Shown piece after piece: positions 9,428 to 61,035 of a stretch of 64,000 nucleotides of DNA. Position numbers and translations under genes: made by a program. Within the stretch, counting starts at the first letter, position 1; each line of letters begins with the position of its first letter. This stretch comes from Oscillospiraceae bacterium (lineage in GTDB: Bacteria > Bacillota > Clostridia > Oscillospirales > Ruminococcaceae), in assembly GCA_009777155.1 (NCBI GenBank), contig WRMK01000002.1:213-64212 (forward strand). The letters run 5' to 3'. The notes under the pieces were generated by a model. That model was not told the DNA's origin. It saw only the letters and a list, made by a program, of their open reading frames with translations, and made no database searches.

Positions 9428-10306
9428 ATGAACGACTTTTTATTTCTCGGGGGCGATATGCGGGCGGTTTACGCCGCGAAAAAGCTTAGTGAGTACGGCA
9501 AGGACTGCTTTATTCACGGCTTTGGGGCCGCCGATTTGCCCTTGTGCGAATCGCAGGCTATACCTATCTTTGACGTCATTGCAAACCTTGACAAAAAATT
9601 CAACAACCTTGTACTGCCCCTGCCCGCAAGCACCGACGGACTTAATATTAACGCGCCGTACTCCAAATGCACCCTGCCGTTATCGCTGATACCGCGTGTT
9701 ACGGCAACGGGTGGCAGGGTCTACTACGGCAAGGCTAACCCGCTCCTTACCGACATTTGCAGTCAAAATAATTTAACAGCTGTGAATTATTTTGAACGTG
9801 AGGAGTTGGCGATAATGAACGCCGTCCCGACCGCAGAGGGTTGCCTCGAAATTATCATGCGCGAAACTCCCGCAACTGTCTTCGGCGCGGCTGTTCTGCT
9901 AACCGGCTTTGGCAGAATCTCAAAGGTTTTGGCGAATTATCTGACCGCACTCGGCGCGTGCGTGACCGTATCGGCGCGTAAATATGCCGACCTCGCATGG
10001 GCAGAAGTCGCACGGTGTGACACCGTGCCAATCTCGCGGCTCGACGAAAGGCTCCCCGAGTTCGACATTATCATAAACACCGTCCCCGCCGAAATCCTAA
10101 GTGCGGCGCGGCTCGCCTTGCTGAAAAAGGACTGCCTTGTCGTGGATTTGGCGTCAAAAACGGGCATTGAGGACTTGGAGGCGGCAAAGCGGGCGGGCGT
10201 CAACGTGATTTGGGCGTTGTCGCTACCGGGGAAAACCGCGCCTGTAACAGCGGGGTACATCATCGCCGACACGATTATGAATATTATGGTGGAAAATTTA
10301 TTGTAG
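9428..10306 (+). CDS. dpaA: dipicolinate synthase subunit A
   Basis: FLGGDMR N-terminus and a Rossmann-like central GFGRISK; followed by dpaB. Confidence 0.85.
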   Translation: MNDFLFLGGDMRAVYAAKKLSEYGKDCFIHGFGAADLPLCESQAIPIFDVIANLDKKFNNLVLPLPASTDGLNINAPYSKCTLPLSLIPRVTATGGRVYYGKANPLLTDICSQNNLTAVNYFEREELAIMNAVPTAEGCLEIIMRETPATVFGAAVLLTGFGRISKVLANYLTALGACVTVSARKYADLAWAEVARCDTVPISRLDERLPEFDIIINTVPAEILSAARLALLKKDCLVVDLASKTGIEDLEAAKRAGVNVIWALSLPGKTAPVTAGYIIADTIMNIMVENLL

Positions 10307-10363
10307 GGACGCGATATATCGTGTTCGGGCATATTCGCGGACACCATATATGGTGTCCCTACA
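10303..10363. repeat. inverted REP-like doublet; the head overlaps the dpaA stop codon
   Basis: GTAGGGACGCGATATATCGTGTTC ... GGACACCATATATGGTGTCCCTACAG. Confidence 0.8.
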
Positions 10364-11333: not shown

Positions 11334-11862
11334 GTAGGGGCGAACTCCGTTCGCCCGCATGTCGCACACGCCCTGTTTGCGGACGACCGTGCGCGGTCGT
11401 CCGCATATGCGCGGCTCCGCCGCCCCGTCTGTTAAATTACCGCCTTGTTATGACGTTTTTTGTTGTTGAAAATGTTTGGTGTAGGGAACGGTTCGTAACC
11501 GTTCCGTATGTTTATGCGGGTTCGTAATCGTTCCGTATATTTATGCGGGTTCGTAATCGTTCCGTATATTTATGCGACTTCGTAACCGTTCCGTATATTT
11601 ATGCGGCTTCGTAACCATCCCGAAAATCCACACGATTTATAGGACGGAACGGTTACGAACCGTTCCCTACATAACACCGCGCCGTGTTTCGGGTAATTTT
11701 GCGGACGACCGAGGGCGGTCGTCCCTACGTTTGATAAAACCGTGCAAATTTGCGCCAATTTACAAAATCGCCGAAACATGCGGAACGGTTTAGAACCGTT
11801 CCCTACAATAAAATTTACGAACGGCAGAAAATACCCATGTAGGGGCGGGCATTGCCCGCCCG
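11334..11862. repeat. REP-like hairpin cluster
   Basis: Multiple GTAGGG-headed hairpins with different stems (GCGAAC.., AACGGTT.., ACGACCG.., GCGGGCA..). Confidence 0.85.
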
Positions 11863-13437: not shown

Positions 13438-13585
13438 GTAGGGGCGCGCATTGCGCGTCCGTAATTTCACGCAAACCGCGTCCGTAATTTTACGCAAACG
13501 CGGGGTCTTTACGGACGGGCAATGCCCGCCCGCAAATCTACACAAACGCGGGGTCTTTGCGGACGCGCAATGCGCGCCCCTACAG
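13438..13585. repeat. REP-like hairpin cluster
   Basis: GTAGGGGCGCGCATTGCGCGTCCG and CGGACGGGCAATGCCCGCCCG units. Confidence 0.85.
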
Positions 13586-16267: not shown

Positions 16268-17825
16268 ACTTTTCCCCAAGAAACTTCGGCAAATCCATCC
16301 CCGCCTGATTGAAGACCTCGCCGAGCGGCGGAACCGCCTTCATCAGCCCGCTCAAGAAGTCCGACGTCGCGGTTTTGCCGTCCGCGCCCGCGCTTGAACC
16401 CGAGTCCCAAACGGTGACTTTATCAATCTTAATATTCTTAATCGCCTCGACTTGAATACGTGTCAACTCCTCAAGCTTGTCAGCTATTAACAGCTTAACC
16501 GCGCTATCCGCGTTGCCGCCCGCCGCCGAAATCAGCTCGGCGATACCCTCGGCTTGCTTGACGAGAATCTCCTTTGCACCCCGCGCCTGCGCCTCGAGTT
16601 TGGCGTAAATCGCGTCGGCTTCGCCCTTCGCGTGCCGCCTTGTCACCTCGGCCTTGGCTTCGGCGTCGATTTCAAGCTGATTCTTCTGAATTTCGGCCTT
16701 GACAATGACGTCGGCCTGTTGGGTGGCGCGCTCGAGTTCGGCTCTCGCGGTCTCGGCGGCACGCTGTGCGGCGTAGGCTTCTTCCTTTGCCCGTGCGGCT
16801 TGAACCGCTTCGGCGGCCATCGCCAACTTCAACGCCTCGGCTTCACGTTCGCGCCGATTCGACTCGGATTTCGCTATCTCAATTTTGGCGTCGTTCTCGC
16901 CCTGAACCGCCGTGGCGTTTGCCGCCGCGACCTGAATCCGCTGTTCGCGCATTGCCTGTGCTTGCCCGATTTCTCCGTCACGGTCCCGCTCGGCAATCGC
17001 GATTTTTGCATCGTTCTGCGCCTTTGCGCGGGCCTCAGCTTCGCGTTGGTCGCGGCTTGCCTCCGAACGCGCAATCTCAACCTTCGAGTCGTTCTCCCCT
17101 TGAATCGCCTGTGCATCTGCCGCCGCAACCCCTACACGCTGTTCGCGGTGGGCGTGCGCCTGCCCGATTTCACCGTCGCGGTCCTTCTCCGCAACCGACT
17201 TTTTCGCGTCGTTAATCGCCTTCGCCGCGGCTTCCTTACCGAGCGCCTCGATGTACCCCGACTCGTCGTTAATGTCGGTCACGTTTACGTTTATCAGCCT
17301 CAGCCCGATTTTTTTCAGCTCAATCTCCACATTATTAGACACCGCAAGCAGGAATTTATCGCGGTCTGTGTTGATTTCCTCGATTTCCATCGTGGCGATT
17401 ACCAGACGCAACTGCCCTAAAATTATGTCCTTTGAAAGGTCTTGAATCTCGTTCAATTTCAAGCCCAAAAGCCGTTCCGCGGCGTTTTGCATAACGCCCG
17501 GCTCGGTGGAAATACCCACCATGAACCGCGACGGCACGTCAACGCGGATGTTCTGTTTGGACAAGGCACTCCGTAAATCTACATTGATTGACATGGGCGT
17601 CAAATCCAGATACTGATAGGATTGAATGACCGGGATAATCAGCGCACCGCCGCCGTGTATGCACTTTGCACTGCGCGCCTGCCCGGTCTTGTCCCTGCCG
17701 ACGTTGCCGTAAACGACCAAGATTTTGTCGGACGGGCATTTCTTATACCGCGACAAAATCGCCATTACAAGCGAGAATACGATAATCGCGACTACCGCAA
17801 TCAGAAAAATAATATTGGGGTCCAT
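16254..17825 (-). CDS. floT: flotillin (SPFH/band-7 family, FloT/YuaG-like)
   Basis: N-terminal TM helix, SPFH domain, long Ala/Glu-rich repeats (internal duplication ERDRDGEIGQA). Confidence 0.85.
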   Translation of the reverse strand: MDPNIIFLIAVVAIIVFSLVMAILSRYKKCPSDKILVVYGNVGRDKTGQARSAKCIHGGGALIIPVIQSYQYLDLTPMSINVDLRSALSKQNIRVDVPSRFMVGISTEPGVMQNAAERLLGLKLNEIQDLSKDIILGQLRLVIATMEIEEINTDRDKFLLAVSNNVEIELKKIGLRLINVNVTDINDESGYIEALGKEAAAKAINDAKKSVAEKDRDGEIGQAHAHREQRVGVAAADAQAIQGENDSKVEIARSEASRDQREAEARAKAQNDAKIAIAERDRDGEIGQAQAMREQRIQVAAANATAVQGENDAKIEIAKSESNRREREAEALKLAMAAEAVQAARAKEEAYAAQRAAETARAELERATQQADVIVKAEIQKNQLEIDAEAKAEVTRRHAKGEADAIYAKLEAQARGAKEILVKQAEGIAELISAAGGNADSAVKLLIADKLEELTRIQVEAIKNIKIDKVTVWDSGSSAGADGKTATSDFLSGLMKAVPPLGEVFNQAGMDLPKFLGEKSVDS

Positions 17826-17836
17826 AGTTTTCCTCC

Positions 17837-17948
17837 TGTAAATTTAATTAGGTTGACGGGGTTGGTTTTGGGTGGTTGGGTGTAAATTTGATTGGGTTTA
17901 CGGGGGGGTGGTCGGGGTTTGGGTGTAAATTTAGTTGGGTTTACAGGG
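17837..17948. repeat. TGTAAAT-N8-GGTTTACA palindrome family (3 units)
   Basis: gggtgtaaatttgattgggtttacggg and gggtgtaaatttagttgggtttacaggg. Confidence 0.7.
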
Positions 17949-17970
17949 CGTATTTGGTGGTGCGAATTGT

Positions 17971-18199
17971 GTAGGGACACCATATATGGTGTCCGCGGAA
18001 ATGCGCGGCTGTGGTGTTTTTCGGACGCCATATATGGCGTCCCTACGGTTGCTGACGTTTTGTGTGTAGGGGCGGGCTTCCACGCCCGACCGCAAGCCCT
18101 GCGCTACCAATGCGGGCGAACACAGTTCGCCCCTACCATGTTAAAATTATTAACCGTAGAAAAGATTTTTTCAATGTGGGGGCGAGCTGTGTTCGCCCG
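17971..18199. repeat. REP-like hairpin cluster
   Basis: GTAGGGACACCATATATGGTGTCCG, GGACGCCATATATGGCGTCCCTAC, GTAGGGGCGGGCTTCCACGCCCGACC, an inverted GCGAAC doublet. Confidence 0.85.
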
Positions 18200-18289
18200 T
18201 AAATTCTGGCGTTTCTGCGGATTGGCGAACGCGGGCGTGCGTTTTTACATGCGCCGAACACACCCCTACCGCCCCCTGCGCCCCCACAA

Positions 18290-18380
18290 GTATCAGCAAA
18301 TTACCACCAAAAGTATCAGCAAATTACCACCAAAAGCATCAGCAAATTACCACCAAAAGTATCAGCAAATTATCACCCAA
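18290..18380. repeat. 23-nt tandem repeat, about 3.9 copies, overlapping the nfeD stop codon
   Basis: GTATCAGCAAATTACCACCAAAA repeated. Confidence 0.85.
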
Positions 18381-18963
18381 TCCGCTCCACCACCAAAACA
18401 TTCCCGGCGATTATATCCGTGACCCGCACGGGCGTGTTGGCGGTCATCGCGCCGCTCTCGCTGACCGCGTCGCACTCGACCTGCCGCTCGGCAAGCTGAA
18501 CCGTGACCTTGCCGCGCTTGGTCTTGTCCTCGGGAATGGGTATGTATATTGTGCCGCTCTCCCCGATTAACAACTTCATGTTGAGGGTTCCGCTCTGTTG
18601 CAGCTTCGCCGAGGCGCGAATGACCTTCGTCACGCCGACCATTGCACCCACACCGAGCAAAAACGCCAGTAAAAACGCAATCGGAACGCTGCCGAGGGCG
18701 TTCATAAAGACGACGCCGCTCCACCCGAACACGCAGAAAAACGCCACAATACTTTTGAGCGAGAAGAAGCCCATAATCCCGTATTCGCTGATGCCGTCTG
18801 CATCGGGCAGGTCTGCATCGGGGACGTCAATGTCGTCTTCGCCGCCGATTCCGAAGATTAAAAGTATCGTCTGAATCAGCAGGATTACGGTCGCGGGGAT
18901 TGCGATGCAGTAAAAAATCTGCCACGGCAACCCCAGAGCCCATTGCTCCGCAAACCATTGCAT
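18373..18963 (-). CDS. NfeD-family membrane protein (YuaF-like)
   Basis: Several TM helices plus a C-terminal OB-like GKVTVQL...VRVTDI domain; lies upstream of the flotillin gene. Confidence 0.75.
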   Translation of the reverse strand: MQWFAEQWALGLPWQIFYCIAIPATVILLIQTILLIFGIGGEDDIDVPDADLPDADGISEYGIMGFFSLKSIVAFFCVFGWSGVVFMNALGSVPIAFLLAFLLGVGAMVGVTKVIRASAKLQQSGTLNMKLLIGESGTIYIPIPEDKTKRGKVTVQLAERQVECDAVSESGAMTANTPVRVTDIIAGNVLVVERIG

Positions 18964-18986
18964 AAAATCACCCTTTCTTTCATACT

Positions 18987-19040
18987 CTGCAAATCCTTGC
19001 GGATTTGCTTCGCGGGGCAGGGAGACCCTGCCTCCTTGAC
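18987..19040 (-). promoter_or_regulatory. conserved two-hairpin 5' leader motif (copy 1, upstream of nfeD)
   Basis: Minus strand reads GGCAGGG-TCTC-CCTGCC then GCAAATCC-GCAA-GGATTTGC; a paralogue lies at 63886-63938. Confidence 0.55.
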
Positions 19041-19159
19041 ATAATTTTGTGCCAAAATTTGTAAATAGAATTTACCTATACTTATATTATAGTGCTTTTT
19101 CAACACAATGTCAAGGTTTTCGGCAAAAAAATTTTTGCTAAATTATTTGCGAAAAACTA

Positions 19160-19188
19160 TTGCATTTTTAATTGATTAATGTTACAAT
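19160..19188 (+). promoter_or_regulatory. sigma-A-type promoter of the XRE regulator gene
   Basis: TTGCAT-17 nt-TACAAT. Confidence 0.5.
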
Positions 19189-19230
19189 ATATGTAAATCA
19201 AATTTACTTAATTCTTGTAGCAGGTGATTT

Positions 19231-19761
19231 ATGAACAACACACTTCTCGGTAAGAAGCTGAAAGAAGCCCGCCTTGCCAAAAAGATGACCCAGACCGACG
19301 TCGTGGGCGGGTACATCACCCGCAATATGTTGAGCCAAATCGAGAGCGGGTGCGCCTTTCCGTCGATTCGCACACTGGAGTATCTTTCGGGCGTGCTTGA
19401 AATCCCCATGTCCGAATTGGTGTCCGAGAGCGAGACGATTATGTCCGCGACAAGCTCGTTGGCCATGTCGCCGAATATGGCGCAAACCCTGCTCGACGAC
19501 CTCGTCAAAGCCAAGCAGGGCCTGCTTTCGGGCGATTTTGAGGTCACAATTCAGCTACTCTCGCCTTATCTAAAGGAGGACTGTGCGATTTACGACGAGA
19601 GCGCGGCGTTGGTCTGCCGCGCCCGCACCGCGCTTGCAAAGAAGTACGCACTCGAGGGGGACGCCGCCGCGGCAAAGCGTGAGAGGAAGGCGGCGGCGGA
19701 GTGGAAATCTAAAGGGGTTTACAGTGCCGATTGGAAGAAAGATGATGCCTTGCGGGTTTGA
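19231..19761 (+). CDS. XRE-family HTH transcriptional regulator with a helical C-terminal domain
   Basis: LGKKLKEARLAKKMTQTDV...LSQIESG HTH_3 signature. Confidence 0.85.
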   Translation: MNNTLLGKKLKEARLAKKMTQTDVVGGYITRNMLSQIESGCAFPSIRTLEYLSGVLEIPMSELVSESETIMSATSSLAMSPNMAQTLLDDLVKAKQGLLSGDFEVTIQLLSPYLKEDCAIYDESAALVCRARTALAKKYALEGDAAAAKRERKAAAEWKSKGVYSADWKKDDALRV

Positions 19762-19764
19762 GGG

Positions 19765-19990
19765 TGGTGTAAATTGGTTTGGGTTTACATGGGGGCTGTA
19801 CGAATATCGGTACTTCGCGGGTTAAATTTTGCTGTAAATCAATGTAGGTTTACACATGAGTAGTAAGCATGGCGGTGACTTGTGTGTCTGATGTTGCTGT
19901 AAATCATTGTGGGTTTACACGAGGGTTGTACGAACGGCGGTGCTTTGCGGGTTTGACGTCACTGTAAACCAGACACGATTTACACCCAAA
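19765..19990. repeat. four regularly spaced TGTAAA-N9/10-TTTACA palindromes (period about 64 nt)
   Basis: Units start at about 19768, 19833, 19897 and 19963; alternate spacers are related to each other. Confidence 0.75.
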
Positions 19991-20005
19991 ATCTCGCGAA
20001 AACTA

Positions 20006-20034
20006 TTGACAAACCCCCAATTTAATGCTATAAT
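20006..20034 (+). promoter_or_regulatory. perfect consensus promoter in front of cassette 1
   Basis: TTGACA-17 nt-TGcTATAAT. Confidence 0.7.
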
Positions 20035-20203
20035 AAGCAGGTGATACTATCAACACCCCCATCGAAATAAAGCACCCCGCAGAAATCTCATTCGGCGCGA
20101 AAGCCTTAAACCCAAAGCAACAGCGGCTTTTAAGTAGACTCCGGACTATGGTTCCCGCGCAATCGTCAACAAACGCGACCTCTCCCTGCTCGACTTAGCG
20201 GCG

Positions 20204-20482
20204 TTGACCGCCGAAACGGGCGATGAATTCGCGGTGTTCACGCGCAAGGGCAGGCGGCTGGTAATCAGGGGAAACAAAACCCAAGTCCCCCTGTATCAAA
20301 GCCAAGCCTCAGAATTAAAAGCCGCGGGCTACAAATGGAGCGGACACACCCACCCCGGTTTTGGCGACAACAGCCTGATAGCTTCCGATGGTGACAGAAA
20401 AATGTTGGAAAAATTCGCTCAAACCCGCAGCGTTATATACAACGCCGTCGGTAAGCGGGTTGTATTCGGAAAGGATTTTTAG
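20204..20482 (+). CDS. JAB/MPN-like (RadC-like HxH...SxxD) small protein, cassette 1; the upstream part of the gene is frameshifted
   Basis: ETGDEF...GYKWSGHTHPG...ASDGD; paralogue of 20898-21305; conserved coding-like sequence extends back to 20040 in another frame. Confidence 0.5.
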   Translation: MTAETGDEFAVFTRKGRRLVIRGNKTQVPLYQSQASELKAAGYKWSGHTHPGFGDNSLIASDGDRKMLEKFAQTRSVIYNAVGKRVVFGKDF

Positions 20483-20483
20483 T

Positions 20484-20720
20484 ATGAAAAGCCCGAAAGA
20501 AGACCAAGAACTGATGCGTTCTTTGCAGAATTATTTGAAAACGAATAACCTTTATTTAGAGCCGCACGCCTTGTTTGAGTGGGGTATAGATTGCGTTGGG
20601 GTCTTCGTTAACGGCAATGTTGTCTTGAATATCGGCTTGCCCCCCGTCTCGAACTACCTAATAGAAGAAACCGAGTACACCGGCCGATACATGCGGCAGA
20701 GAGAACAACCGGCGGTCTGA
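20484..20720 (+). CDS. 78-aa partner protein of cassette 1 (putative immunity/antitoxin)
   Basis: ATG 1 nt after the upstream stop (TAG 20480-20482, one spacer nt, ATG at 20484), AAAGGA SD; paralogue of 21286-21522 (shared IGLPPVS block). Confidence 0.65.
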   Translation: MKSPKEDQELMRSLQNYLKTNNLYLEPHALFEWGIDCVGVFVNGNVVLNIGLPPVSNYLIEETEYTGRYMRQREQPAV

Positions 20721-20846
20721 AATTAACACCTAAGAGGTGATACTATCAACGCCCCCATTGAAATAAAACACCCCGCAGAAATCTCATTCGGCGCGAAAGC
20801 CTTGAACCCAAAGCAACAGCGGCTCTTGAGCAAGCTCCCCGACTAT

Positions 20847-20948
20847 AGCAATTCCGCTTAGAAATTGCCCGATAGACGAGCACAAAAGCTTTGATATATG
20901 CGGTTTTGTGCTCGGATTGCGGTGCAATTTCAAGCGGAATTGCTAAAC
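20847..20948. mobile_element. 102-nt palindromic insertion (MITE-like) splitting cassette 2
   Basis: AGCAATTCCGCTT...AAGCGGAATTGCT outer stem, GAGCACAAAA...TTTTGTGCTC inner stem; absent from the paralogous position in cassette 1. Confidence 0.75.
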
Positions 20949-21305
20949 GGCTCCCGCGCAATCGTCAACAAGCGCGACCTCTCCCTGCTCGACTTAGCGG
21001 CGTTGACCACCGAAACAGGCGATGAATTCGCAGTGTTCACGCGCAAGGGCAGGCGGTTGGTTGTGAGGGGCGGCTTTATGCGCGTACCCATAACCCCCGA
21101 TGATGCCGCCGCATTGAATGCGGCGGGCTACAAATGGAGCGGACACACCCACCCGGGCATTTCGGATTCCGTGCTAACCCCATCAAAAGGAGATGTAACA
21201 ATTTTAGACATTTTCAAACAAAACAGAACTGTAATATATAATTCTATCGGCAAATACATAGTTATTAACAAGGAGGTGCAACAATATGTGGAAGCCCGAA
21301 AATGA
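20898..21305 (+). CDS. JAB/MPN-like small protein, cassette 2 (its ATG is supplied by the palindromic insertion)
   Basis: ETGDEF...GYKWSGHTHPG...TPSKGD. Confidence 0.6.
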   Translation: MRFCARIAVQFQAELLNGSRAIVNKRDLSLLDLAALTTETGDEFAVFTRKGRRLVVRGGFMRVPITPDDAAALNAAGYKWSGHTHPGISDSVLTPSKGDVTILDIFKQNRTVIYNSIGKYIVINKEVQQYVEARK

Positions 21306-21522
21306 TTTGCAAGTGCAAAAAGCAGTGCAAAATTTCATGAGTGAAAATAAATACACATTCAGCAGACCTGTCGAATACAAGCCCCTAATCGACGGCGTAG
21401 ATGTCTGCATAGACGACCTCCCCGTGCTGATGATTGGACTGCCCCCCGTGTCCGATTATAGCGTCATGGAGACAAAGCATACCTATAAATACTTGAAATC
21501 GGAACACCGAGCGACTATGTAA
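21286..21522 (+). CDS. 78-aa partner protein of cassette 2
   Basis: AAGGAGG SD 9 nt upstream; overlaps the upstream gene by 20 nt. Confidence 0.7.
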   Translation: MWKPENDLQVQKAVQNFMSENKYTFSRPVEYKPLIDGVDVCIDDLPVLMIGLPPVSDYSVMETKHTYKYLKSEHRATM

Positions 21523-21549
21523 TTAAAAACCACAATAAAACCGCTCAAT

Positions 21550-21600
21550 ACCCGCCTTTCTGTTTGAACAACAACGAACAGCAAGGGCGGGTTTGTAAAT
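21550..21600 (+). terminator. putative intrinsic terminator after cassette 2
   Basis: acccgcc...gggcggg stem followed by tttgtaaattt. Confidence 0.45.
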
Positions 21601-21635
21601 TTCCGGAAAAACTTCCACATATTTTCAAAAAACCA

Positions 21636-21664
21636 TTTACAAGCCGTCCAAAATATGGTATAAT
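21636..21664 (+). promoter_or_regulatory. sigma-A-type promoter of nifJ
   Basis: TTTACA-17 nt-TGgTATAAT; AAGGAGG SD at about 21700. Confidence 0.6.
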
Positions 21665-21715
21665 ACTTTATAAGTGAAAAATTTTATCAAATAAATCTCA
21701 AGGAGGCAAAAATCA

Positions 21716-24700
21716 ATGGCAAGAAAAAAAGTCAGCATGAAAGGCAACACCGCCGCGGCGCATGTTTCATATGCGTTTACCGAAGTGGCGGGCATCTACC
21801 CAATCACCCCCTCGTCCGATATGGCGGAAATCACCGACGAATGGTCGGCGGCGGGCAAGAAGAACCTGTTCGGGGACACCGTGCGAGTTGCGGAAATGCA
21901 GTCGGAGGCAGGTGCGGCGGCGACCGTTCACGGTTCGTTGCAAGCGGGCGCGCTCACGACTACCTACACCGCTTCACAAGGGCTACTGCTCATGATTCCG
22001 ACAATGTACAAAATCGCGGGCGAGCTGCTCCCGAGCGTTATCCACGTCTCCGCACGTGCAGTCGCGGCGCATGCACTGTCGATTTTCGGCGACCACAGCG
22101 ACATCAACGCCTGCCGTGCAACCGGCTACGCGATGTTGGCGTCCACCAACGTGCAAGAAGTCATGGACTTAGGCGCGGTTGCACACTTGTCCACACTCAA
22201 AGGCAGAGTGCCGTTCCTGCACTTCTTTGACGGGTTCAGAACCTCCCACGAAATGCAGAAAGTCGAAGAATGGGACTACGCCGACTTGGCTGAATTAGCC
22301 GATTGGGACGCAATCGAGGCCCACCGCAGACGCGCATTGAACCCCGAAAAGCCGGTACTGCGCGGAACTGCACAAAACCCCGACATCTTCTTCCAAGCCA
22401 AGGAAGCCAGCAACAAATACTACGAGGCAATTCCCCAAATAGTGCAAGGCGAAATGGACAAGGTCAACGCTAAAATCGGCACAGATTACAAGCTTTTCAA
22501 CTACTACGGCGCGGTTGACGCAGAGCAAGTTATAGTCTCGATGGGCTCGTCCTGCGATGCCATTGAGGAAACGATTGACTACTTAGCGGCAAAAGGCGAG
22601 AAGGTCGGCTTGGTGAAAGTACGGCTCTACATGCCTTTCGCGGTGGATTCATTTGTGGGCGCAATTCCCGCGACCTGCAAAAAAATCAGCGTGCTTGACC
22701 GTACCAAAGAACCCGGTTCAATCGGCGAACCGCTGTATTTAAGCGTTGTTGCCGCGTTGAAACAAACCGGAAAATTCGCGGACGTGCCTGTGTTCGCGGG
22801 CAGATACGGCTTGGGTTCAAAGGACTTCAACCCCGCATGCGTGCTTGCAATCTACCGCAATACCGCAAAAACCCGCTTCACAGTCGGCATTGACGACGAC
22901 GTTACAAATTTATCATTACCGCTTGATGAATACCCGAACACTGTTCCCGAGGGTACAACCTCCTGCAAATTCTGGGGCATAGGCGGGGACGGAACGGTCA
23001 GTGCGAACGAGAACTCCACCAAGATTATCGGGCAAGACACCGACATGAACGTGCAGGCGTACTTCGCATACGACAGCAAGAAGGCGGGCGGCGTGACGAT
23101 TTCGCACCTGCGTTTCGGTAAAGCACCTATAAAATCGACATATTTTATCACACAAGCGAATTTTGTCGCATGTCATAATCCCTCGTATGTGACAAAATAC
23201 GACATGGTGAAAGACATCATGCCGGGCGGTACGTTCCTTCTCAACTGCCAATGGACTCCCGCAGAGCTTGAAGAACACCTCCCCAATCGAATCAAGTCGC
23301 ACATTGCCAAAAATAACATCAACTTTTATATCATCAACGGCATCAAAATCGCGGGCGAAGTCGGTCTTGGCAACAGAATCAGCACGGTTCTGCAAGCCGC
23401 ATTCTTTGCACTCGCCGACATTATCCCGATTGACGAAGCAATCGACCACATGAAAAAGCAAATCCACAAGCAATTCATTTCAAAAGGCGACAAGATTGTC
23501 GAGATGAATTACGCGGCGGTCGAAAAGGGCGCGGTGTCCTTTGAGAAAGTGGAAATCCCTGCGGCATGGGCCAATGCGGGCGATGATTTTACACTCCCGA
23601 AAGCCGATTCCACAGGCAAACGCGCAGAAGTCGCCGACTTCATCAATGACGTGCTGATTCCGATTAACGCCTATCGCGGCGCAGATTTGCCCGTGTCTAC
23701 CTTCGCCAACAGCCCCGACGGCACTTTCCCGCAAGGTACGGCCGCCTACGAAAAACGCGGCGTTGCAGTGGACGTTCCCGAGTGGATTCCCGAAAACTGC
23801 ATACAGTGCAACCAGTGTTCGTTGGTCTGCCCGCATGCAATTTTGCGGCCGTATATACTCACCGACGACGAAGTCGCAAACGCGCCCGACGGCTTACAAG
23901 TCAAGGACGCAACAGGCCTCCCCGGCATGAAATACACCATGGCATGCTCACCGCTCGACTGCTACGGTTGCTTGGTCTGCGTGAATATCTGCCCGGCGGG
24001 TGCAAAGGACAAGGCGAAAAATGCACTCGTCATGAAGCCGCTCGAAAGCCAGTTGCAACAACAAAACGTATTCGCATACTGCTACGACCTGCCCGAAAAA
24101 CCCGAAACACTTGAGAAATTCAAGGAAACATCGGTCAAAGGCTCGCAGTTCAAACAGCCCCTGCTCGAATTCTCGGGTGCATGCGCGGGTTGCGGCGAAA
24201 CGCCGTATGCTAAGTTGGTGACACAGCTCTTTGGCGACAGAATGTATATCGCAAACGCCACAGGCTGTTCGTCAATCTGGGGCGGTTCTGCCCCCGCAAT
24301 GCCCTACACCGTCAACAAAGAGGGCAAAGGCCCGTCATGGGCGAACTCGCTGTTCGAGGACAACGCCGAATTCAGCTACGGCTTGTATCTCGGCCAAAAG
24401 GCAATCCGCGACCGTTTAGCCCGCAAAACCGAGGCGATACTTGCAAGCGATTGCACAGACGAGGTCAAGGCATCGGGGCAAAAGTGGCTTGACACTTATA
24501 ACAACGGCAAGGAAAACGCTTGTGCAACCAAGTGCTACGTCAAGGCGCTCGAAGCTTGCGGCTGTGACCTTGCAAAAGAAATCCTCACCGACAAGAACTA
24601 CTTGGCGAAGAAATCGGTCTGGGCGTTCGGCGGCGACGGTTGGGCGTATGACATCGGCTACGGCGGCTTAGACCACGTGCTTGCGGCGGGCGACGACGTG

Positions 24701-25847: not shown

Positions 25848-26288
25848 GTAGGGACGACCGCCCCCGGTCGTCCGCAAATACCCGAAACATGGCGCGGTGT
25901 TCTGTAGGGGCGCGCATTGCGCGTCCGCAAATACCCGAAACGCGGCGCGGTGTTCTGTAGGGGCGCGCATTGCGCGTCCGCAAATTCCCGAAACGCGGCG
26001 CGGTGTTGTGTAGGGAACGGTTCTTAACCGTTCCGCAAACTCGCACGACCTTATAAACGGAACGGTTAAGAACCGTTCCCCGCATTAAAATGCCAATAAA
26101 AATTTTCACGACAGGAAAAATATCATGTACGTAGGGGCGAACTGCGTTCGCCCGTGAATCCACACACCTGCCGAACCCCACACAAACGGTCGGGCATGGA
26201 AGCCCGACCCTACGTTGAAAAACCCCACAAACAACCGAAAACCCACGCAACCGCATAAACCCACGGGCGGGCAATGCCCGCCCCTACA
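25848..26288. repeat. REP-like hairpin cluster (includes three tandem 54-nt units)
   Basis: GTAGGGGCGCGCATTGCGCGTCCGCAAATACCCGAAACGCGGCGCGGTGTTCT repeated, plus other stem types. Confidence 0.85.
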
Positions 26289-28478: not shown

Positions 28479-30623
28479 ATGTCCTACTGGTTTGAAAACG
28501 CTGTAATCTATCACATCTACCCGCTTGGCTACTGCGGTTGCCCCAAAGATAATCCTTACTTGGAAAAGCCGGGTAAACCCGCGGGCGAAAGTCCTATTCT
28601 GAAAGTCTTAGAGCATATCCCGACTATTAAGAAACTCGGATTCAACGCCCTCTACATAGGCCCGGTGTTTGAATCCACCCGCCACGGGTACGACACCGCC
28701 GACTTCTTGAAAATCGACTCGCGACTTGGCACAAACGCAGACTTCGCGCGTGTTTGCAAGGAGTTGCACAAGAACGGTATTCGGGTAATTCTCGATGCCG
28801 TGTTCAATCATGTCGGGCGGGATTTCTTCGCCTTCAAAGACCTGCGCCAAAATCGGGGCGGCGGCAAATACGCAGGCTGGTTCCACACTCGCGGCGGCAA
28901 TTCCAATTACAACGACGGCTTTTTTTACGAGGGTTGGGAGGGGCATTACGAGTTGGTAAAGCTGAATTTGCAGAACCCCGAGGTGAAAAACCACTTGAAA
29001 GAGGCGGTGACGACTTGGTACAAGGAATACGGCATTGACGGCTTGCGGCTTGACGTCGCATACAGCTTGGACTTGGGCTTTCTGCGGGAACTCCGTAGCC
29101 ACTGCAAAAGCTTAGAACCCGACTTTTGGCTGATGGGCGAGACTTTGCATGGCGATTACAACGTATGGATGAACCCCGAAATGTGCGACAGTGTCACAAA
29201 TTATCAGTGCTACAAGGGGCTGTATTCGAGCTTCAACGACCTCAATATGTTCGAGATTGCACATTCTTTCAACGACCACTTTATGAACAAATACAGGGGC
29301 AAAAAACTCTATTGTTTTGTGGATAATCACGATGTTGGGCGAATTGCGTCGGTCTTGAAGAACCCCGCGCATTTGTTGCCGCTGTATGCTTTAATGTTCA
29401 CCATGCCGGGCATACCGGGGGTTTATTATGGCAGCGAATACGGCTTCAAAGCCGCCAAGAGCCAAGGCGACGACGCCCTGCGCCCCGAATTTTCTTTGAA
29501 GACCGTCAAGGACACTGAACTCACCCGCGCAATTGCGAAATTGGCGCATGCTCATGCAGGCTTAAAGCCGCTTTGGGACGGCGATTATCGGCAAGTCGTG
29601 TTGAATAATCAGTACTTTGCTTTTGCACGTTCGGCGGGCGGCGAGACGGTCTACACGCTGATTAATGCGAGTGCGGCGCCTGTCGGGTTTAACTTGGGCG
29701 GCGCGGGGAATTATGCTGATGTGCTGACGGGAGAAGTGTTTAATATAAGTCGCGAGGTGAAAGTTGCGGCGTGTAGTGCTATGATACTGGCAGTCACTGA
29801 TGCGCCTGTGAAAGTTTCTGCGCCGATTCAAAAGGTAGCGAAAACTCCCGAACCTGCAAAAGTTTCTGCTCCTGTGCAAGAAGTACCGAAAACTCCCGCG
29901 CCCGCAAAAGTTTCCGAACCCGCGAAAACCGCGCCTGTTCTGATTGCGCGCGGTAAGACCAAGGACGTATTCGACCTCGGCGACGGAACTTTCCTGTTCA
30001 AGTTCAAGGACAACGCCACGGTCAACGACGATGGGCAATTCGACCCGGGCGGTAACACCGTGGGCCTTACAATCGGCGGCTTGGGCGAGGCGAATTTGAA
30101 GCTTACCAAGCACCTTTTCGAGAAAATCAACGCCGCCGGATACCCCACTCACTTTGTCAGCGCGAATCTCGAGAAAGCCGAGATGACCGTTCGCCCCGCT
30201 GTGGTGTTCGGCAAGGACGGCAAGGGCTTGGAGGCCGTCTGCCGTTTCCGCGCAACCGGCAGTTTCATTCGGCGTTACGGGCAGTATGCCAAGGAGGGCG
30301 ATGCGCTGAACGGCTTGGTGGAAATTACCCTGAAAGACGACCAACGCGGCGACCCGCCGATTACCCAAGACACCCTCGTGACACTCGGCATTTTAACCAA
30401 TGACGAGTACCGAATTTTGTCGGAACTCACAAAGGGTATTTCGCACTTGTTGAAATTTATCTTCGCCGAAAAGGGCTTGGATTTGTATGATTTGAAGTTG
30501 GAATTTGGCAAGGTTGACGGTAAAATCGTGCTGATTGACGAGATTGCGGGCGGCAGTATGCGGGTCTACAGGGACGGCAAGGGGCTGACGCCGTTTGAGC
30601 TTACGGAAATAATTACACGATAA
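28479..30623 (+). CDS. GH13 alpha-amylase-family enzyme fused via a Pro/Ala/Lys linker to a SAICAR-synthetase (PurC)-like domain
   Basis: GH13 regions DAVFNHVG, GLRLDVA, MGETLH and VDNHD. C-terminal GKTKDVF...FKFKDNAT...PTHFV...GSFIRRYG...LKDDQRGDP...KLEFG...LIDEI matches the PurC layout. Confidence 0.8.
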   Translation: MSYWFENAVIYHIYPLGYCGCPKDNPYLEKPGKPAGESPILKVLEHIPTIKKLGFNALYIGPVFESTRHGYDTADFLKIDSRLGTNADFARVCKELHKNGIRVILDAVFNHVGRDFFAFKDLRQNRGGGKYAGWFHTRGGNSNYNDGFFYEGWEGHYELVKLNLQNPEVKNHLKEAVTTWYKEYGIDGLRLDVAYSLDLGFLRELRSHCKSLEPDFWLMGETLHGDYNVWMNPEMCDSVTNYQCYKGLYSSFNDLNMFEIAHSFNDHFMNKYRGKKLYCFVDNHDVGRIASVLKNPAHLLPLYALMFTMPGIPGVYYGSEYGFKAAKSQGDDALRPEFSLKTVKDTELTRAIAKLAHAHAGLKPLWDGDYRQVVLNNQYFAFARSAGGETVYTLINASAAPVGFNLGGAGNYADVLTGEVFNISREVKVAACSAMILAVTDAPVKVSAPIQKVAKTPEPAKVSAPVQEVPKTPAPAKVSEPAKTAPVLIARGKTKDVFDLGDGTFLFKFKDNATVNDDGQFDPGGNTVGLTIGGLGEANLKLTKHLFEKINAAGYPTHFVSANLEKAEMTVRPAVVFGKDGKGLEAVCRFRATGSFIRRYGQYAKEGDALNGLVEITLKDDQRGDPPITQDTLVTLGILTNDEYRILSELTKGISHLLKFIFAEKGLDLYDLKLEFGKVDGKIVLIDEIAGGSMRVYRDGKGLTPFELTEIITR

Positions 30624-30740
30624 TGCAGAAATAAAAATGCAGAATGCAGAAATGTCTTTAATTATAGGCGGTGCGCCGTGCGAGACCCGCTTAAAAATTA
30701 AATTATTTCTGCATTCTGCATTTTGCATTTTTATTTACTT
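30621..30740. repeat. AATGCAG-armed hairpin element
   Basis: aatgcagaatgcagaaat...atttctgcattctgcat arms around a loop of about 50 nt. Confidence 0.8.
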
Positions 30741-30945: not shown

Positions 30946-31740
30946 GTAGGGGCGCGCATTGCGCGTCCGTGATTTTACGCAGAACGTGGGGGTTGCGGTT
31001 GATGTTGTTTTGTCTGTAGGGGCGCGCATTGCGCGTCCGTGGTTTTATGCGCCGTGTATTTTCCTGTTGTGAAAATTTTTTGTTGTAGGGAACGGTTCTT
31101 AACCGTTCCGATGATGAAACCGTGTAAAATTTCGCAAAATATAAATCCGCGCAAACCTACGCAAATTACAGGCTTGCGGAAACTTGGCGGAACGGTTAAG
31201 AACCGTTCCCTACATAACACCGCGCTGTGTTTCGGGGGGTGCGGCGTTTCCGTGGGATTTACGGGCGAACGCAGTTCGCCCCTACGTTCATGACGTTTTT
31301 TATGTGGTTGAAAATTTTTATTGTAGGGAACGGTTCGTAACCGTTCCGAAAGTTTCAACGACCCCATAAACGGAACGGTTATGAACCGTTCCCTACATAA
31401 CACCGCGCTGTGTTTCGGGGGGCTTGCGGCGTTTCCGTGGGATTTGTGGGCGTGTGGATTGCATGTTTGTGTGGGTTTGCGGTCGTGTGGATTGCGCGTT
31501 TGTGTGGATTTGCGGGCGTGTGGGATTTGCGGGCGAACGCAGTTCGCCCCTACATTCATGACGTTTTTTATGTGGTTGAAAATTTTTGCAGTGCGGACGC
31601 GCAATGCGCGCCCCTACAATAGGTGGGATTTGCGGCGTTTCCGTGGGATTTTGCGAACGACCGGGGGCGGTCGCCCCTACAATCGGTGGGTTTTGCGGCG
31701 TTTCCGTGGGATTTACGGACGCGCAATGCGCGCCCCTACA
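30946..31740. repeat. largest REP-like hairpin cluster (about 15 units)
   Basis: GTAGGG-headed hairpins with GCGCGCA, AACGGTT, GCGAAC and ACGACCG stems in both orientations. Confidence 0.9.
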
Positions 31741-32602: not shown

Positions 32603-32735
32603 TTTTTACCTCCGATTTTTATAATGCAGAATGCAGAATGCAAAATGCAGAAATAATTTAATTTTCAGGTGGTTTTCCAACGGATATGTACGTAATATTT
32701 TTATTTATTTCTGCATTCTGCATTATTATTTCTGC
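32603..32735. repeat. AATGCAG-armed hairpin element (55-nt conserved loop)
   Basis: Near-identical to 33455-33590. Confidence 0.85.
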
Positions 32736-33454
32736 ATTCTTTTGCGTATTTCATTGACATTCCAATTCATCAAATGCCGCACCATGTACCTGAAACAAAA
32801 CTGCTTAAACCGCCCGCCTTTTTGCCTATGCGCCGAAAAGAGCTCGTCGGGGGTGTCGTAGATGCCGAGGTCTTGTATAATGCCCTCGTTTTGAATGTAG
32901 GTGCTGTTTTCGTTCCATTCGATAGTCGGGTTCTTGAAATCGGCGGTCGCTACGCCGTACCCGCAGAACGCGCCTTCGCAGGCCTTGAATTTATTCTGCA
33001 ACGCCCCGAGATAGGCCTTGTCCAAAATAAATCCTTCCAGGTTCAGCCACTCGCCGTTGTAGTTGATTTCAACCCATGAGTGCAGAATTTCCCGCGGTGA
33101 CAAGGCGTAATAAAACCCTTTCATTGCGCCCTTTTGCAGGGTTTTGTCGATGTAAAACCCATGTATTCGGCACTCGACACCAACAGCACGCAGCAGTGCC
33201 ATAAACAGCGTGCCTTTGGTGTTGCACTGGCCGTAATTGTCCGCAAGCACGCTCGACGCCGCGATATTATCGCTTATGTTGTACCCGAAAATTATTTCAT
33301 CGCGGACATAGTTATATATGCCGAGGATTTTTTCCTTGTCGGTTTGATTGCGCCAATCGCGCTCTGTGACTAAGTTTTGTATGGCGGGGTGGTTGTAATT
33401 CAGCATGGTGGTTGGGGATAGTAGGGGGGTGTGTGGCATGTTTTGTTCCTCCAT
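32726..33454 (-). CDS. transglutaminase-like (Cys-His-Asp) domain protein
   Basis: GQCNTKGTLFMALLRAVGV...HSWVE...LEGFILD. Confidence 0.75.
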   Translation of the reverse strand: MEEQNMPHTPLLSPTTMLNYNHPAIQNLVTERDWRNQTDKEKILGIYNYVRDEIIFGYNISDNIAASSVLADNYGQCNTKGTLFMALLRAVGVECRIHGFYIDKTLQKGAMKGFYYALSPREILHSWVEINYNGEWLNLEGFILDKAYLGALQNKFKACEGAFCGYGVATADFKNPTIEWNENSTYIQNEGIIQDLGIYDTPDELFSAHRQKGGRFKQFCFRYMVRHLMNWNVNEIRKRMQK

Positions 33455-33590
33455 TTTTTAATGCAGAATGCAGAATGCAAAATGCAGAAATAATTTAATT
33501 TTCAGGTGGTTTTCCAACGGATTTGTACATAATATTTCAATTTATTTCTGCATTCTGCATTCTGCATTCTGCATTTCTTTTTGGTTTTCA
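33455..33590. repeat. AATGCAG-armed hairpin element (55-nt conserved loop)
   Basis: (AATGCAG)n AAATAATTTAATTTTCAGGTGGTTTTCCAACGG...TTATTTCTGCATTCTGCATT. Confidence 0.85.
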
Positions 33591-42409: not shown

Positions 42410-42582
42410 GTAGGGGCGGGCATTGCCCGCCCGAAATTTTTATGCGGCGTAATGCGATTGCGTGCATTGCACCGCACGCACACACATAAATCCCACGGGC
42501 GAACGCAGTTCGCCCCTACAACATTAAAAATTATTAACGACAGTAAAATTTTTTCAGCGTAGGGGCGAACTGTGTTCGCCCG
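42410..42582. repeat. REP-like hairpin cluster
   Basis: GTAGGGGCGGGCATTGCCCGCCCG plus an inverted GCGAAC doublet. Confidence 0.85.
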
Positions 42583-42597
42583 TAAGGCACGCAGGAC

Positions 42598-42691: not shown

Positions 42692-42740
42692 CATTATTCA
42701 CTATTCACTATTCACTATTCACTATTCATTATTCACTCAC
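42692..42740 (-). repeat. heptanucleotide array (7 units) overlapping the stop codon of the glucan-synthase-like gene
   Basis: Sense strand reads GGT GAG TGA ATA ATG AAT AGT GAA TAG TGA ATA GTG... Confidence 0.8.
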
Positions 42741-60715: not shown

Positions 60716-60762
60716 GGGTTAATACTGTTTTATTATAGGAGATTGCGAAACTCGTCGTCTAA

Positions 60763-60846
60763 CGGACGGGCAATGCCCGCCCCTACAATATGTAGATGGA
60801 CGGCAAAACCAAATCGCCATATGTAGGGGCGCGCATTGCGCGTCCG
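60763..60846. repeat. REP-like hairpins
   Basis: cggacgggcaatgcccgcccctaca; gtaggggcgcgcattgcgcgtccg. Confidence 0.85.
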
Positions 60847-61035
60847 TGGGATTTTGACCTTGCAATAAGCCACGCTTTTGAAGACATAAAAGAGGGCAGA
60901 ACCTATCCGGCAGATGAAGCCCTTAACGAGATACGCAGAGAACTTAACCTTAAACACATTGATACAGAGCAGTTAGTTTAAGCTATTGAAAACATAATTC
61001 CGCACACCCGTGCAGAAAGGGATTGCTGAAATATT

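Follow-up and report, generated by a model that had tools for sequence, protein, structure and literature searches.

MuF-type and other capsid-packaged toxins with small downstream immunity ORFs have been described by Zhang et al. (2012; PMC3482391) and Jamet et al. (2017; PMC5576092), and Iyer et al. (2017; PMC5512222) treat effectors fused with MuF or portal domains under the heading of polyvalent proteins. Jamet et al. make no mention of JAB (0 occurrences), and for the RadC-type JAB domains found in phage and plasmid polyvalent proteins (PMC5512222), nucleic acid, and not ubiquitin-like proteins, has been proposed as the substrate. Orphan CdiA-CT/CdiI and Rhs-CT/RhsI cassettes are attributed in PMC5576092 to Poole et al. 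(2011).

The DNA analyzed here is a single 64-kb stretch, referred to below as the window. It contains two paralogous two-gene units, as the sequence-only reading had proposed, at 20039-20720 (cassette 1) and 20735-21522 (cassette 2), each with a first gene, A, and a partner gene, B. We favor, with a probability of about 0.65, the interpretation that these are tandem, stranded "orphan" cassettes of the phage-head polymorphic-toxin class, in which the A toxins have decayed and the B immunity genes have been kept. The features of the locus are as follows.

19231-19761, plus strand: gene for an XRE/HTH_3-family regulator, directly upstream of the cassettes
19702-19984, no strand assigned: five TGTAAA-N10-TTTACA palindromes with a spacing of 65-66 nt (pattern search)
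20006-20034, plus strand: sigma-70-type promoter, TTGACA-17 nt-TATAAT, with TG before the -10 hexamer (12/12 matches)
20039-20482, plus strand: A1, a pseudogene of the JAB-like putative toxin domain (family HMM and frame translation)
20484-20720, plus strand: B1, intact 78-aa partner, candidate immunity protein (B-family HMM, E = 2.9e-11)
20735-20846, plus strand: A2, 5′ part (alignment to homologues and family HMM)
20847-20948, plus strand: 102-nt insertion interrupting A2 (placed against homologues)
20949-21305, plus strand: A2, 3′ part, GSRAIVNK to EARK, with the complete predicted JAB-like fold
21213-21242, plus strand: possible internal promoter, TTCAAA-18-TATAAT, in the 3′-terminal part of A2, ahead of B2 (10/12, consensus match only)
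21286-21522, plus strand: B2, intact 78-aa partner gene (B-family HMM, E = 2.5e-13)

The tight coupling within each unit was borne out, with B1 starting 1 nt past the A1 stop codon and B2 overlapping the end of A2 by 20 nt, both B genes encoding 78 residues. The 64-kb window contains neither a larger toxin gene nor any homologue of MuF or portal proteins, in agreement with the earlier remark that a full-length upstream toxin is missing, and neither cassette has an N-terminal head-protein domain, both starting at the linker of the toxin domain. The neighbors in the window are an SPFH/Band 7 gene, an unassigned 196-aa ORF, the HTH gene and a 1184-aa ORF read as pyruvate:ferredoxin oxidoreductase; no phage genes were found among them, and the cassettes do not lie in a head or packaging module. 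A possible MuF remnant upstream of cassette 1 was also considered and rejected, as the tblastn extension to 19892 proved to be alignment drift in the wrong frame with no homology.

The promoter ahead of the cassettes, previously called perfect, matches the consensus at all 12 positions, and its predicted transcription start, at about 20040-20042, falls on the 5′ edge of cassette 1. Two more near-perfect promoters lie close by, at 19114-19086 (minus strand) and at 21636-21664 (plus strand), so promoter quality of this kind is not unique to the locus. The last of the five palindromes ends 22 nt before the -35 hexamer, and the TGTAAA-N10-TTTACA pattern occurs at 10 sites in the window compared to 0.43 pattern matches expected by chance (both strands counted); these palindromes are candidate operator sites. 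HTH genes likewise precede the stand-alone A-B modules of two other loci (L001 and L008).

Both A genes are damaged, beginning with their 5′ ends. Homology in A1 begins at AGGTGATACTATCAAC, which offers no ATG, GTG or TTG, and its first conserved codons run from ATC 20049, while the start region of A2 consists of the extended Shine-Dalgarno-like sequence TAAGAGGTGAT, ATC 20745 and then the codons for INAPIEIKHPAEISFGAKALNPKQQRLLSKLPDY. In-frame stop codons are located 4 codons (cassette 1) and 7 codons (cassette 2) upstream of the first conserved codons, and ATG, GTG and TTG are all missing from the interval between them, which extends the previous observation that no ATG precedes the conserved block. 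The 5′ edge, GGT GAT ACT ATC AAC, matches a stretch inside the coding region of a longer gene on viral contig L010. Each A gene has the form expected of an orphan cassette, a 5′-truncated toxin fragment that lacks a canonical start and retains conserved upstream homology. An extended Shine-Dalgarno-like sequence, TAAG(C)AGGTGAT, has nevertheless been kept in both cassettes, with its core 7 nt upstream of the in-frame ATC.

Further lesions lie inside the reading frames. In A1, three-frame translation and alignment of the two cassettes revealed a 1-nt deletion at about 20142/20143 that shifts the frame, and the matches to the family HMM are split over two frames, at 20043-20144 and 20141-20476, ahead of the TAG stop at 20480-20482. 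A2, which ends with TGA at 21303-21305, is split by the 102-nt palindromic insertion with its two in-frame stops (TAG and TGA). The peptide ...LPDYGSRAIV... that had been quoted for the conserved segment is therefore contiguous in neither copy, cassette 1 being frameshifted and the insertion in cassette 2 parting ...LPDY from GSRAIV.... The same lesions in A1 and A2 are seen in an independent assembly (L048), which aligns without gaps over 3697 nt at 99.9% identity. Because both A genes are disrupted, the window holds no working toxin-immunity pair, nor does it have the intact, co-translated genes of a type II toxin-antitoxin system. A truncated A2 product containing the whole fold could be made from ATG 20898 or GTG 20922 (135 and 127 aa, respectively, both N-terminally truncated), but a strong hairpin encloses both codons, and a good ribosome-binding site is lacking in front of either.

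This hairpin is formed by the insertion, which is exactly 34 codons long, keeps the frame and is also present in assembly L048. The palindrome proper spans 20846-20945 (100 nt) and is imperfect, and the RNA of the insertion is predicted to fold with -60.7 kcal/mol (z = -8.6). By inspection, no recognizable target-site duplication flanks the insertion, and the 64-kb window contains no second copy of the palindrome. Searches of GTDB representative genomes returned one chance 22-mer only, in a Rickettsiales MAG, and searches of JGI metagenomes returned only 19-21-nt matches to a single arm. Since no other copies of the palindrome were found, the idea that the insertion is a MITE could not be confirmed. 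An Rfam scan of 17500-22000 gave only spurious miRNA-precursor matches on unrelated hairpins and none on the insertion.

The A genes belong to a large family, which comprises at least 972 clusters when grouped at 90% identity and 740 representatives when grouped at 50%. In each of the 150 representatives listed among these 740, the A domain ends at the C-terminus of the protein or no more than about 15 residues short of it. The N-terminal parts of the long family members, found in phage contigs, match Phage_min_cap2, Phage_Mu_F, Phage_portal, Peptidase_S78 or VG15, and the N-terminal extension of one homologue (P0005) gave MuF-type matches as well as matches to PHROG minor head proteins. Judging from a few source names, the sources are apparently mostly Clostridia-type and Chitinispirillales MAGs, and no match was found by tblastn among the cultured phage genomes of INPHARED. 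Stand-alone A genes of 153 aa, with normal starts and followed by B, are also common in non-phage chromosomal contexts beside HTH genes.

The motif that had been picked out in A, E...GYKWSGHTHPG...S-x-GD, is present, and 23 family members share E61, H101, H103, S114 and D117 without exception. Between HxH and S this family has 10 residues, whereas the canonical JAMM motif has 7. An AlphaFold model of the domain (pLDDT 87, pTM 0.81) places the motif residues just before strand beta2, at the end of strand beta4 and at the start of helix alpha3, which we take to be the canonical JAMM positions of these five residues. The top fold match in the PDB was Pyrococcus furiosus JAMM1 (5ld9_B; probability 0.99, E = 1.1e-2, TM 0.42/0.50), followed by lower matches to EMC8/9, CSN6, BubCD, AMSH and Rpn8/11. 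In the BFVD viral structure library, the best match was a "Minor capsid protein" (E = 1e-15, TM 0.82), with JAB and MPN proteins among the weaker matches. Sequence models were uninformative. Pfam gave no matches for the window proteins (E <= 1) or for 13 family members (E <= 10), and the check proposed earlier against JAB, Toxin-JAB1, DUF4329 and RadC produced no HMM match even at E <= 10. NCBIfam had no match for A, a PDB sequence profile search gave nothing relevant, and the scans of A and B with Pfam, NCBIfam, PHROGs and PADLOC identified no informative family, except for the MuF-type matches on P0005. The JAB/MPN assignment thus holds for the predicted fold, with its weak structural match, and for the invariant E/HxH/S..D residues, and it does not extend to any curated sequence model. 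A encodes a domain of about 150 aa, with a conserved linker of about 35 aa and then a predicted JAB/MPN-like (deaminase-fold) metal-hydrolase core with an E/H-T-H/S-x-x-D site.

Both B reading frames are undamaged, and each is served by a ribosome-binding site of its own; AAGGAGGTG precedes B2. Judging from such sequence signals, B1 and B2 are probably expressed. The closest relatives of B1 are the B genes of three viral contigs (L009, L010 and L014). It had been stated that the two partners share only the block IGLPPVS; they in fact align over 75 residues with 32% identity (E = 2.5e-8). The AlphaFold model of B2 (pLDDT 83) is a small alpha+beta protein, and a comparison of the B model with the PDB gave no fold match with E < 0.7. 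Pfam had no match for B either, B did not emerge as an immunity protein of the Imm-NTF2-2 type, and the PADLOC library had no match for A or B. By analogy with the described systems, B is presumably an immunity protein.

In 46 of 46 loci, the gene immediately following A is a member of the B family. A and B also co-diverge, their matrices of pairwise identity being correlated (Mantel r = 0.86, p <= 0.0005). Divergence between the two cassettes is a mosaic, as previously noticed, with 95% protein identity in the N-terminal half of A, 49% in its C-terminal half and 31% in B. The high identity at the 5′ end was also reproduced, but split into one block of 104 nt (91% identity) and another of 122 nt (93%) and not as a single block of about 165 nt, because the deletion and the insertion break the sequence. 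Most of the differences in the two blocks affect the third base of a codon (7 of 9 for the first block, 7 of 12 for the second), again as described before. Together with the conserved Shine-Dalgarno-like sequence, this bias hints that the N-terminal block has been translated in the stand-alone arrangement. Such a mosaic of identities between the cassettes is the mark left when cassettes are exchanged through recombination in the conserved 5′ region. Of the sequence-only reading as a whole, the paired units, the promoter and the motif stand, while the intact A peptide and the single 5′ block do not. Its suggestion of a toxin-immunity module is supported by the C-terminal position of A, the head-protein fusions, the invariable linkage and the mosaic, but not for the window copies themselves, in which both A genes are disrupted. 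Its alternative, a novel two-gene module, is not retained, since the cassettes belong to the class of MuF/phage-capsid toxins and effectors treated in PMC3482391, PMC5576092 and PMC5512222.

Given these observations, we weighed the reading of stranded orphan cassettes against several others. A still working toxin-antitoxin-like or toxin-immunity module, in which small amounts of A are made from ATC 20049 or ATC 20745, or A2 is made from the ATG or GTG in the insertion, and are neutralized by B, would fit with the Shine-Dalgarno-like sequence kept at the same distance from ATC in both cassettes, the third-position bias, the frequency of normally starting stand-alone A genes next to B and HTH genes outside phages, and the whole predicted fold encoded by the 135-aa ORF from ATG 20898. 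Initiation at ATC is very inefficient, which counts against such a module. After the frameshift, A1 can no longer give a full domain, its first in-frame start leading to 92 aa with the first strand and helix lost; translation of A2 from ATC would stop at a TAG five codons inside the insertion, and its internal starts are buried in the hairpin and poorly served by ribosome-binding sites. We therefore consider a working module quite unlikely. Even less credible, and in our judgment very improbable, is a role for the palindrome as a functional switch that conditionally restores the toxin by translational bypassing, excision or RNA processing. The exact 34-codon length and the very stable hairpin are what such a switch would show, but an in-frame length is expected by chance in 1/3 of cases, the insertion contains two in-frame stops, homologues have no insertion at that position, and the neighboring copy, A1, is simply frameshifted. 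Bypassing in particular was examined and discarded, as the sole matched pair of take-off and landing codons found (GCT before the TAG and GCT near the 3′ end) lands out of frame and two stops are present.

A different question is whether A is a toxin at all. It could be a virion-associated JAB enzyme that serves in head maturation or as an injected anti-defense protein, which in the latter case would strip ubiquitin-like or CD-NTase conjugates or process nucleic acid, with B as its chaperone, inhibitor or assembly partner and the chromosomal copies as prophage debris. This would be consistent with the fusion of the domain to structural head proteins, the portal and the prohead protease included, with fold matches to bacterial ubiquitin-like deconjugases (BubCD and 8tyx), with the decay of both A copies in the window, and with the interpretation, in PMC5512222, of effector fusions to MuF and portal domains as injected early effectors. 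The adjacency of A and B in 46 of 46 loci and their co-divergence fit better with an enzyme that needs restraint in the cell that produces it, and A-B pairs that stand alone have been maintained where no phage genes are near. In the window, moreover, the B genes remained open behind a consensus promoter and with good ribosome-binding sites, in contrast to the decayed A genes; this difference argues for selection on B alone and not for neutral debris. A non-toxin role for A is accordingly unlikely in our view. We also consider, as a long shot, that the JAB-like domain is a head-packaged injected effector and that captured B genes form strongly expressed immunity-only islands, a new type of anti-phage defense. 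In that case, A would hit a host process, for example by removing the ubiquitin-like or CD-NTase conjugates of defense systems or by cutting nucleic acid, the B islands would neutralize the injected effector, and the window would be an example seen after the toxin halves had been discarded.

Under the favored reading, that of orphan cassettes stranded from phage-head polymorphic toxins, the cassettes would go back to domains that phages append to the C-termini of proteins inside the head (MuF, minor capsid protein 2, portal or prohead protease), and in a producing cell or a lysogen B would bind the A domain that belongs to it and neutralize it. The pair would have arisen by cassette exchange through recombination within the conserved 5′ region, and the locus would now act, if at all, as an immunity-only island against the JAB-type toxins of related phages. 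The toxicity of A and the protection by B are suggested by analogy; the substrate of A would be a peptide bond or nucleic acid, and the B genes would be useful to the cell. The window copy itself is a decayed remnant, and this remnant points to a large, unannotated pair of families, a JAB-like C-terminal domain and the small protein strictly linked to it. Should A and B indeed act as toxin and immunity protein, a metal-hydrolase activity would join the MuF-toxin repertoire and a new immunity fold would be added, and the locus would be a clear case of a chromosome keeping immunity genes and discarding the toxins, which bears on resistance to phage-delivered effectors.

In comparison with the MuF/phage-capsid toxins, relatives of A similarly extend Phage_Mu_F, Phage_min_cap2 and portal proteins at the C-terminus with a small ORF next to them, and the C-terminal part of A varies together with the partner. 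Unlike those systems, the window copies are both disrupted, lie outside any prophage and lack the MuF or portal part, and the C-terminal domain of A lies outside the Pfam and NCBIfam families. The fusion of A relatives to Peptidase_S78 (prohead protease) is not mentioned in the cited sections of PMC3482391, PMC5576092 and PMC5512222. Tox-JAB-2 (DUF4329) and Tox-JAB-1, as presented in PMC3482391, share with A a deaminase-like JAB fold with E, H[ST]H, S and D, the A family having H-T-H, and likewise form C-terminal toxin modules that come with a small partner. The A family differs from DUF4329 and Toxin-JAB1 in giving no HMM match at E <= 10 and in its HxH-to-S spacing (10, not 7), in being carried by phage head proteins and not by RHS, T6SS or T7SS proteins, and in having a partner that is not detectably NTF2-like or Imm65-like. 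As with the RadC-type JAB domains in PMC5512222, A represents a divergent prokaryotic JAB domain used by mobile elements, but it has no sequence match to the RadC model and members of its family strictly co-occur with a small partner gene. The orphan CdiA-CT/CdiI and Rhs-CT/RhsI cassettes, as outlined in PMC5576092, resemble the window cassettes in their 5′-truncated, startless toxin fragments, conserved upstream sequence, intact immunity genes and tandem arrangement. Classical orphans are found downstream of the main toxin gene, and the present cassettes differ from them because there is no full-length parent gene or prophage in the 64 kb. Unlike those orphans, the window cassettes stand directly behind a consensus promoter of their own and carry secondary lesions, the frameshift and the palindromic insertion.

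The two paralogous two-gene units proposed from the sequence alone were borne out, each pairing a first gene for a JAB-like candidate toxin domain (A1 in unit C1, A2 in unit C2) with a second gene for its candidate immunity partner (B1, B2). The locus is laid out as follows:

20006-20034, cassette promoter, 12/12 match to the sigma-70 consensus, TG preceding the -10 hexamer
20039-20720, unit C1, first gene A1 and second gene B1
20484-20720, B1, 78 aa, starting 1 nt past the A1 stop
20735-21522, unit C2, paralogue of C1, first gene A2 and second gene B2
21213-21242, possible second, internal promoter, upstream of B2
21286-21522, B2, 78 aa, its first 20 nt shared with the end of A2
19114-19086, minus strand, near-perfect promoter nearby
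21636-21664, plus strand, near-perfect promoter nearby

The perfect promoter and the tight coupling of A and B were likewise found as claimed, and since two near-perfect promoters lie close to it, such promoter quality is normal for this genome. The B1 and B2 reading frames are both open, B2 is served by the near-perfect ribosome-binding site AAGGAGGTG, and no further A or B copy, MuF or portal gene was found within the 64-kb window.

The A domain had no sequence match in Pfam, NCBIfam or the PDB, so that none of the Pfam families suggested for the first gene was recovered. The suggested JAB-like fold agrees with an AlphaFold model built from 23 sequences (pLDDT 87, pTM 0.81), whose best PDB fold match was the Pyrococcus furiosus JAMM1 deubiquitinase homologue (probability 0.99, E = 1.1e-2, TM 0.42/0.50), with EMC8/9, CSN6, BubCD, AMSH and Rpn8/Rpn11 of the MPN/JAB group and cytidine deaminases as lower matches. 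In a viral-structure library, the top match was a member of the A family labelled 'Minor capsid protein' (E = 1e-15), and JAB and MPN proteins ranked lower. The motif also held, as E61, H101, H103, S114, and D117 are invariant and are placed by the model just before beta2, where beta4 ends and where alpha3 starts, which are the positions of the JAMM site; the HxH-to-S loop has 10 residues, as against 7. From the modeled fold and site we conclude that A is a divergent JAB-like domain outside every curated JAB family.

The A genes had been read as contiguous, but three-frame translation and C1/C2 alignment showed A1 to be frameshifted and A2 interrupted. In A1, a 1-nt deletion at ~20142/20143 (CTCCCCGACTAT in C2 versus CTCCGGACTAT in C1) puts the N-terminal 32 codons out of frame with the remaining domain. 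In A2, a 102-nt insertion (20847-20948) separates ...LPDY from GSRAIV..., a point at which homologues are uninterrupted. It forms an imperfect palindrome of 100 nt (20846-20945) with a folding energy of -60.7 kcal/mol (z = -8.6), and brings TAG and TGA stops into the frame. That its length preserves the frame is probably a coincidence, and bypassing across it is ruled out by the codons present. The palindrome may stem from a mobile element or from a local event. No second copy was found in the window, 185,579 GTDB representative genomes or JGI metagenomes, and no target-site duplication was recognisable. Both lesions are present in L048, a 3783-nt contig from another assembly that is 99.9% identical over 3697 nt without gaps, so they are not assembly errors of the window.

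Several other repeats and a large ORF were observed in the window:

19702-19984, 17837-17945, 4312-4333, and 11743-11764, TGTAAA-N10-TTTACA palindromes
2190-2267, 10302-10363, 13442-13531, 17971-18046, 18113-18199, 26013-26080, 31322-31397, 42495-42583, and 60762-60847, GTAGGG...CCCTAC hairpins
30611-30740, 32623-32740, and 33460-33575, long hairpins of AATGCAGAATGCAGAA-type heptamer repeats facing their own reverse complement
18281-18395, tandem array of a 23-nt unit (CCACCAAAAGTATCAGCAAATTA), 4-5 copies
42733-49905, minus strand, 2390-aa ORF with C-terminal GH94 supersandwich and catalytic domains

The TGTAAA-N10-TTTACA palindromes form 10 sites (19 matches on both strands versus 0.43 expected by chance), five of them spaced regularly at 65-66 nt between an HTH gene and the cassette promoter and three at 43-44 nt upstream of a divergent SPFH/Band 7 operon; the sites resemble operator arrays of a regulator, possibly the adjacent XRE protein. 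The intergenic GTAGGG...CCCTAC family, with nested palindromic stems, resembles REP/BIME-type elements (GTAG head plus palindrome), and Rfam miRNA-precursor matches on two hairpins in 17966-18204 were spurious. The 23-nt array overlaps the 3' end of a 196-aa ORF (18373-18963, minus) and the intergenic region beyond, and the 2390-aa ORF encodes a very large glycosyl phosphorylase/synthase-type protein unrelated to the cassettes.

Single-sequence and profile searches placed A in a family of at least 972 clusters at 90% identity, all labelled 'hypothetical' and none with a Pfam domain, and an exhaustive HMM search gave 740 representatives at 50% identity. The A-domain match ends no more than ~15 residues from the protein C-terminus in all 150 representatives listed of the 740, and the N-termini of long members are Phage_min_cap2, Phage_Mu_F, Phage_portal, Peptidase_S78 (prohead protease) or VG15; PHROG minor head proteins match the homologue P0005. 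The domain is present on 38 IMG/VR viral contigs and in 0 of 50,697 deposited phage records. Stand-alone genes of ~153 aa that begin where the window homology begins make up many of the members; one of them (L001) has a GTG start behind a ribosome-binding site, and these genes lie in chromosomal non-phage surroundings, often after HTH genes or in toxin-antitoxin-rich islands. In three fetched loci, L003-L005 (7384-8714; L005, 402-1732), a MuF-JAB gene survives only as three separate ORFs of 44, 175, and 237 aa followed by an intact B, among housekeeping genes and without a surrounding prophage, and is a second example of a decayed toxin side with its partner kept. On the viral contig L045 (4941-5310), the A domain appears as two HMM pieces (positions 5-77 and 101-152), which points to a further family member with an internal deletion or a frameshift.

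Scanning all fetched loci in six-frame translation with the A and B HMMs revealed a B gene immediately downstream of the A domain in 46/46 loci that have one. The B proteins range from 78 to 105 aa and have in common an N-terminal helix (..YC..N.L.FEK..) and a C-terminal motif (..P.P.VL....G...QTEHTKKYL); 66 clusters were found, 0 of them annotated, and B1 and B2 fall in a short subclade that also contains the partners from L009, L010, L011, and L014. The structure modelled for B (pLDDT 83) is small and of the alpha+beta type, and no fold match was found for it. Across 33 distinct pairs, A and B pairwise identities were strongly correlated (Mantel r = 0.86, p <= 0.0005), and as shared ancestry adds to this value, it shows co-inheritance, with which co-evolution would be compatible. 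In L066, a close B2 relative follows a gene with a MuF-like C-terminal 'HCGC' motif in its upstream part. Directly after a complete A-B pair in L006 and L007 (8893-9003) is a B fragment (HMM positions 1-37), which is a partial orphan partner gene; the island around this locus also has Zeta-toxin, RnlB antitoxin, DUF3990, HNH, and ParE/RelB genes.

A1 and A2 proteins are 95% identical up to ~R75-G76 and 49% beyond, and B1 and B2 are 31% identical. By analogy, this mosaic is the pattern of polymorphic-toxin cassettes and, together with the A-B linkage, upholds the earlier assignment; the conserved 5' segment would serve as a recombination handle, with the variable toxin end moving with its cognate partner. 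The conserved C1/C2 DNA forms two blocks (91% and 93% identical) in which 7/9 and 7/12 differences fall on third codon positions. ATG, GTG, and TTG starts are absent from both A1 and A2, and in-frame stops lie 4 (C1) and 7 (C2) codons upstream of the first conserved codons. The 5' cassette edge GGT GAT ACT ATC AAC corresponds to internal coding sequence (GGT GGT ACT ATA ... ATC AAC) of the longer L010 gene. An extended Shine-Dalgarno-like TAAG(C)AGGTGAT stands at the head of both units, and its core lies 7 nt from an in-frame ATC. Because the substitution bias of the 5' block is of the coding type, A may have worked as a stand-alone gene, read from a weak, non-canonical start, until the lesions arose. 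The other possibility is that the source from which each 5' block was copied was a working phage gene.

With a probability of roughly two in three, C1 and C2 are two stranded orphan cassettes whose putative toxin halves have decayed, toxicity, immunity, and expression being predicted. Their partner genes are still intact, downstream of a strong promoter and possibly of a second internal one, and immunity would be what selection has retained. What gives the locus its significance is chiefly the two large, uncharacterised families, A and B, to which it points, and not the decayed copies. A novel module had been offered as one alternative, but the toxin/effector class is already published. Zhang et al. 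2012 (PMC3482391) list MuF phage-capsid delivery among the routes of polymorphic toxins and describe two clades of JAB toxins that have the E, H[ST]H, S, D pattern, possibly nucleases as proposed for RadC; Jamet et al. 2017 (PMC5576092) describe MuF toxins with small downstream ORFs, and Iyer et al. 2017 (PMC5512222) effectors fused to MuF and portal domains. The A-B family fits this MuF/phage-head toxin class, its putative toxin domain and partner being absent from the curated libraries tested.
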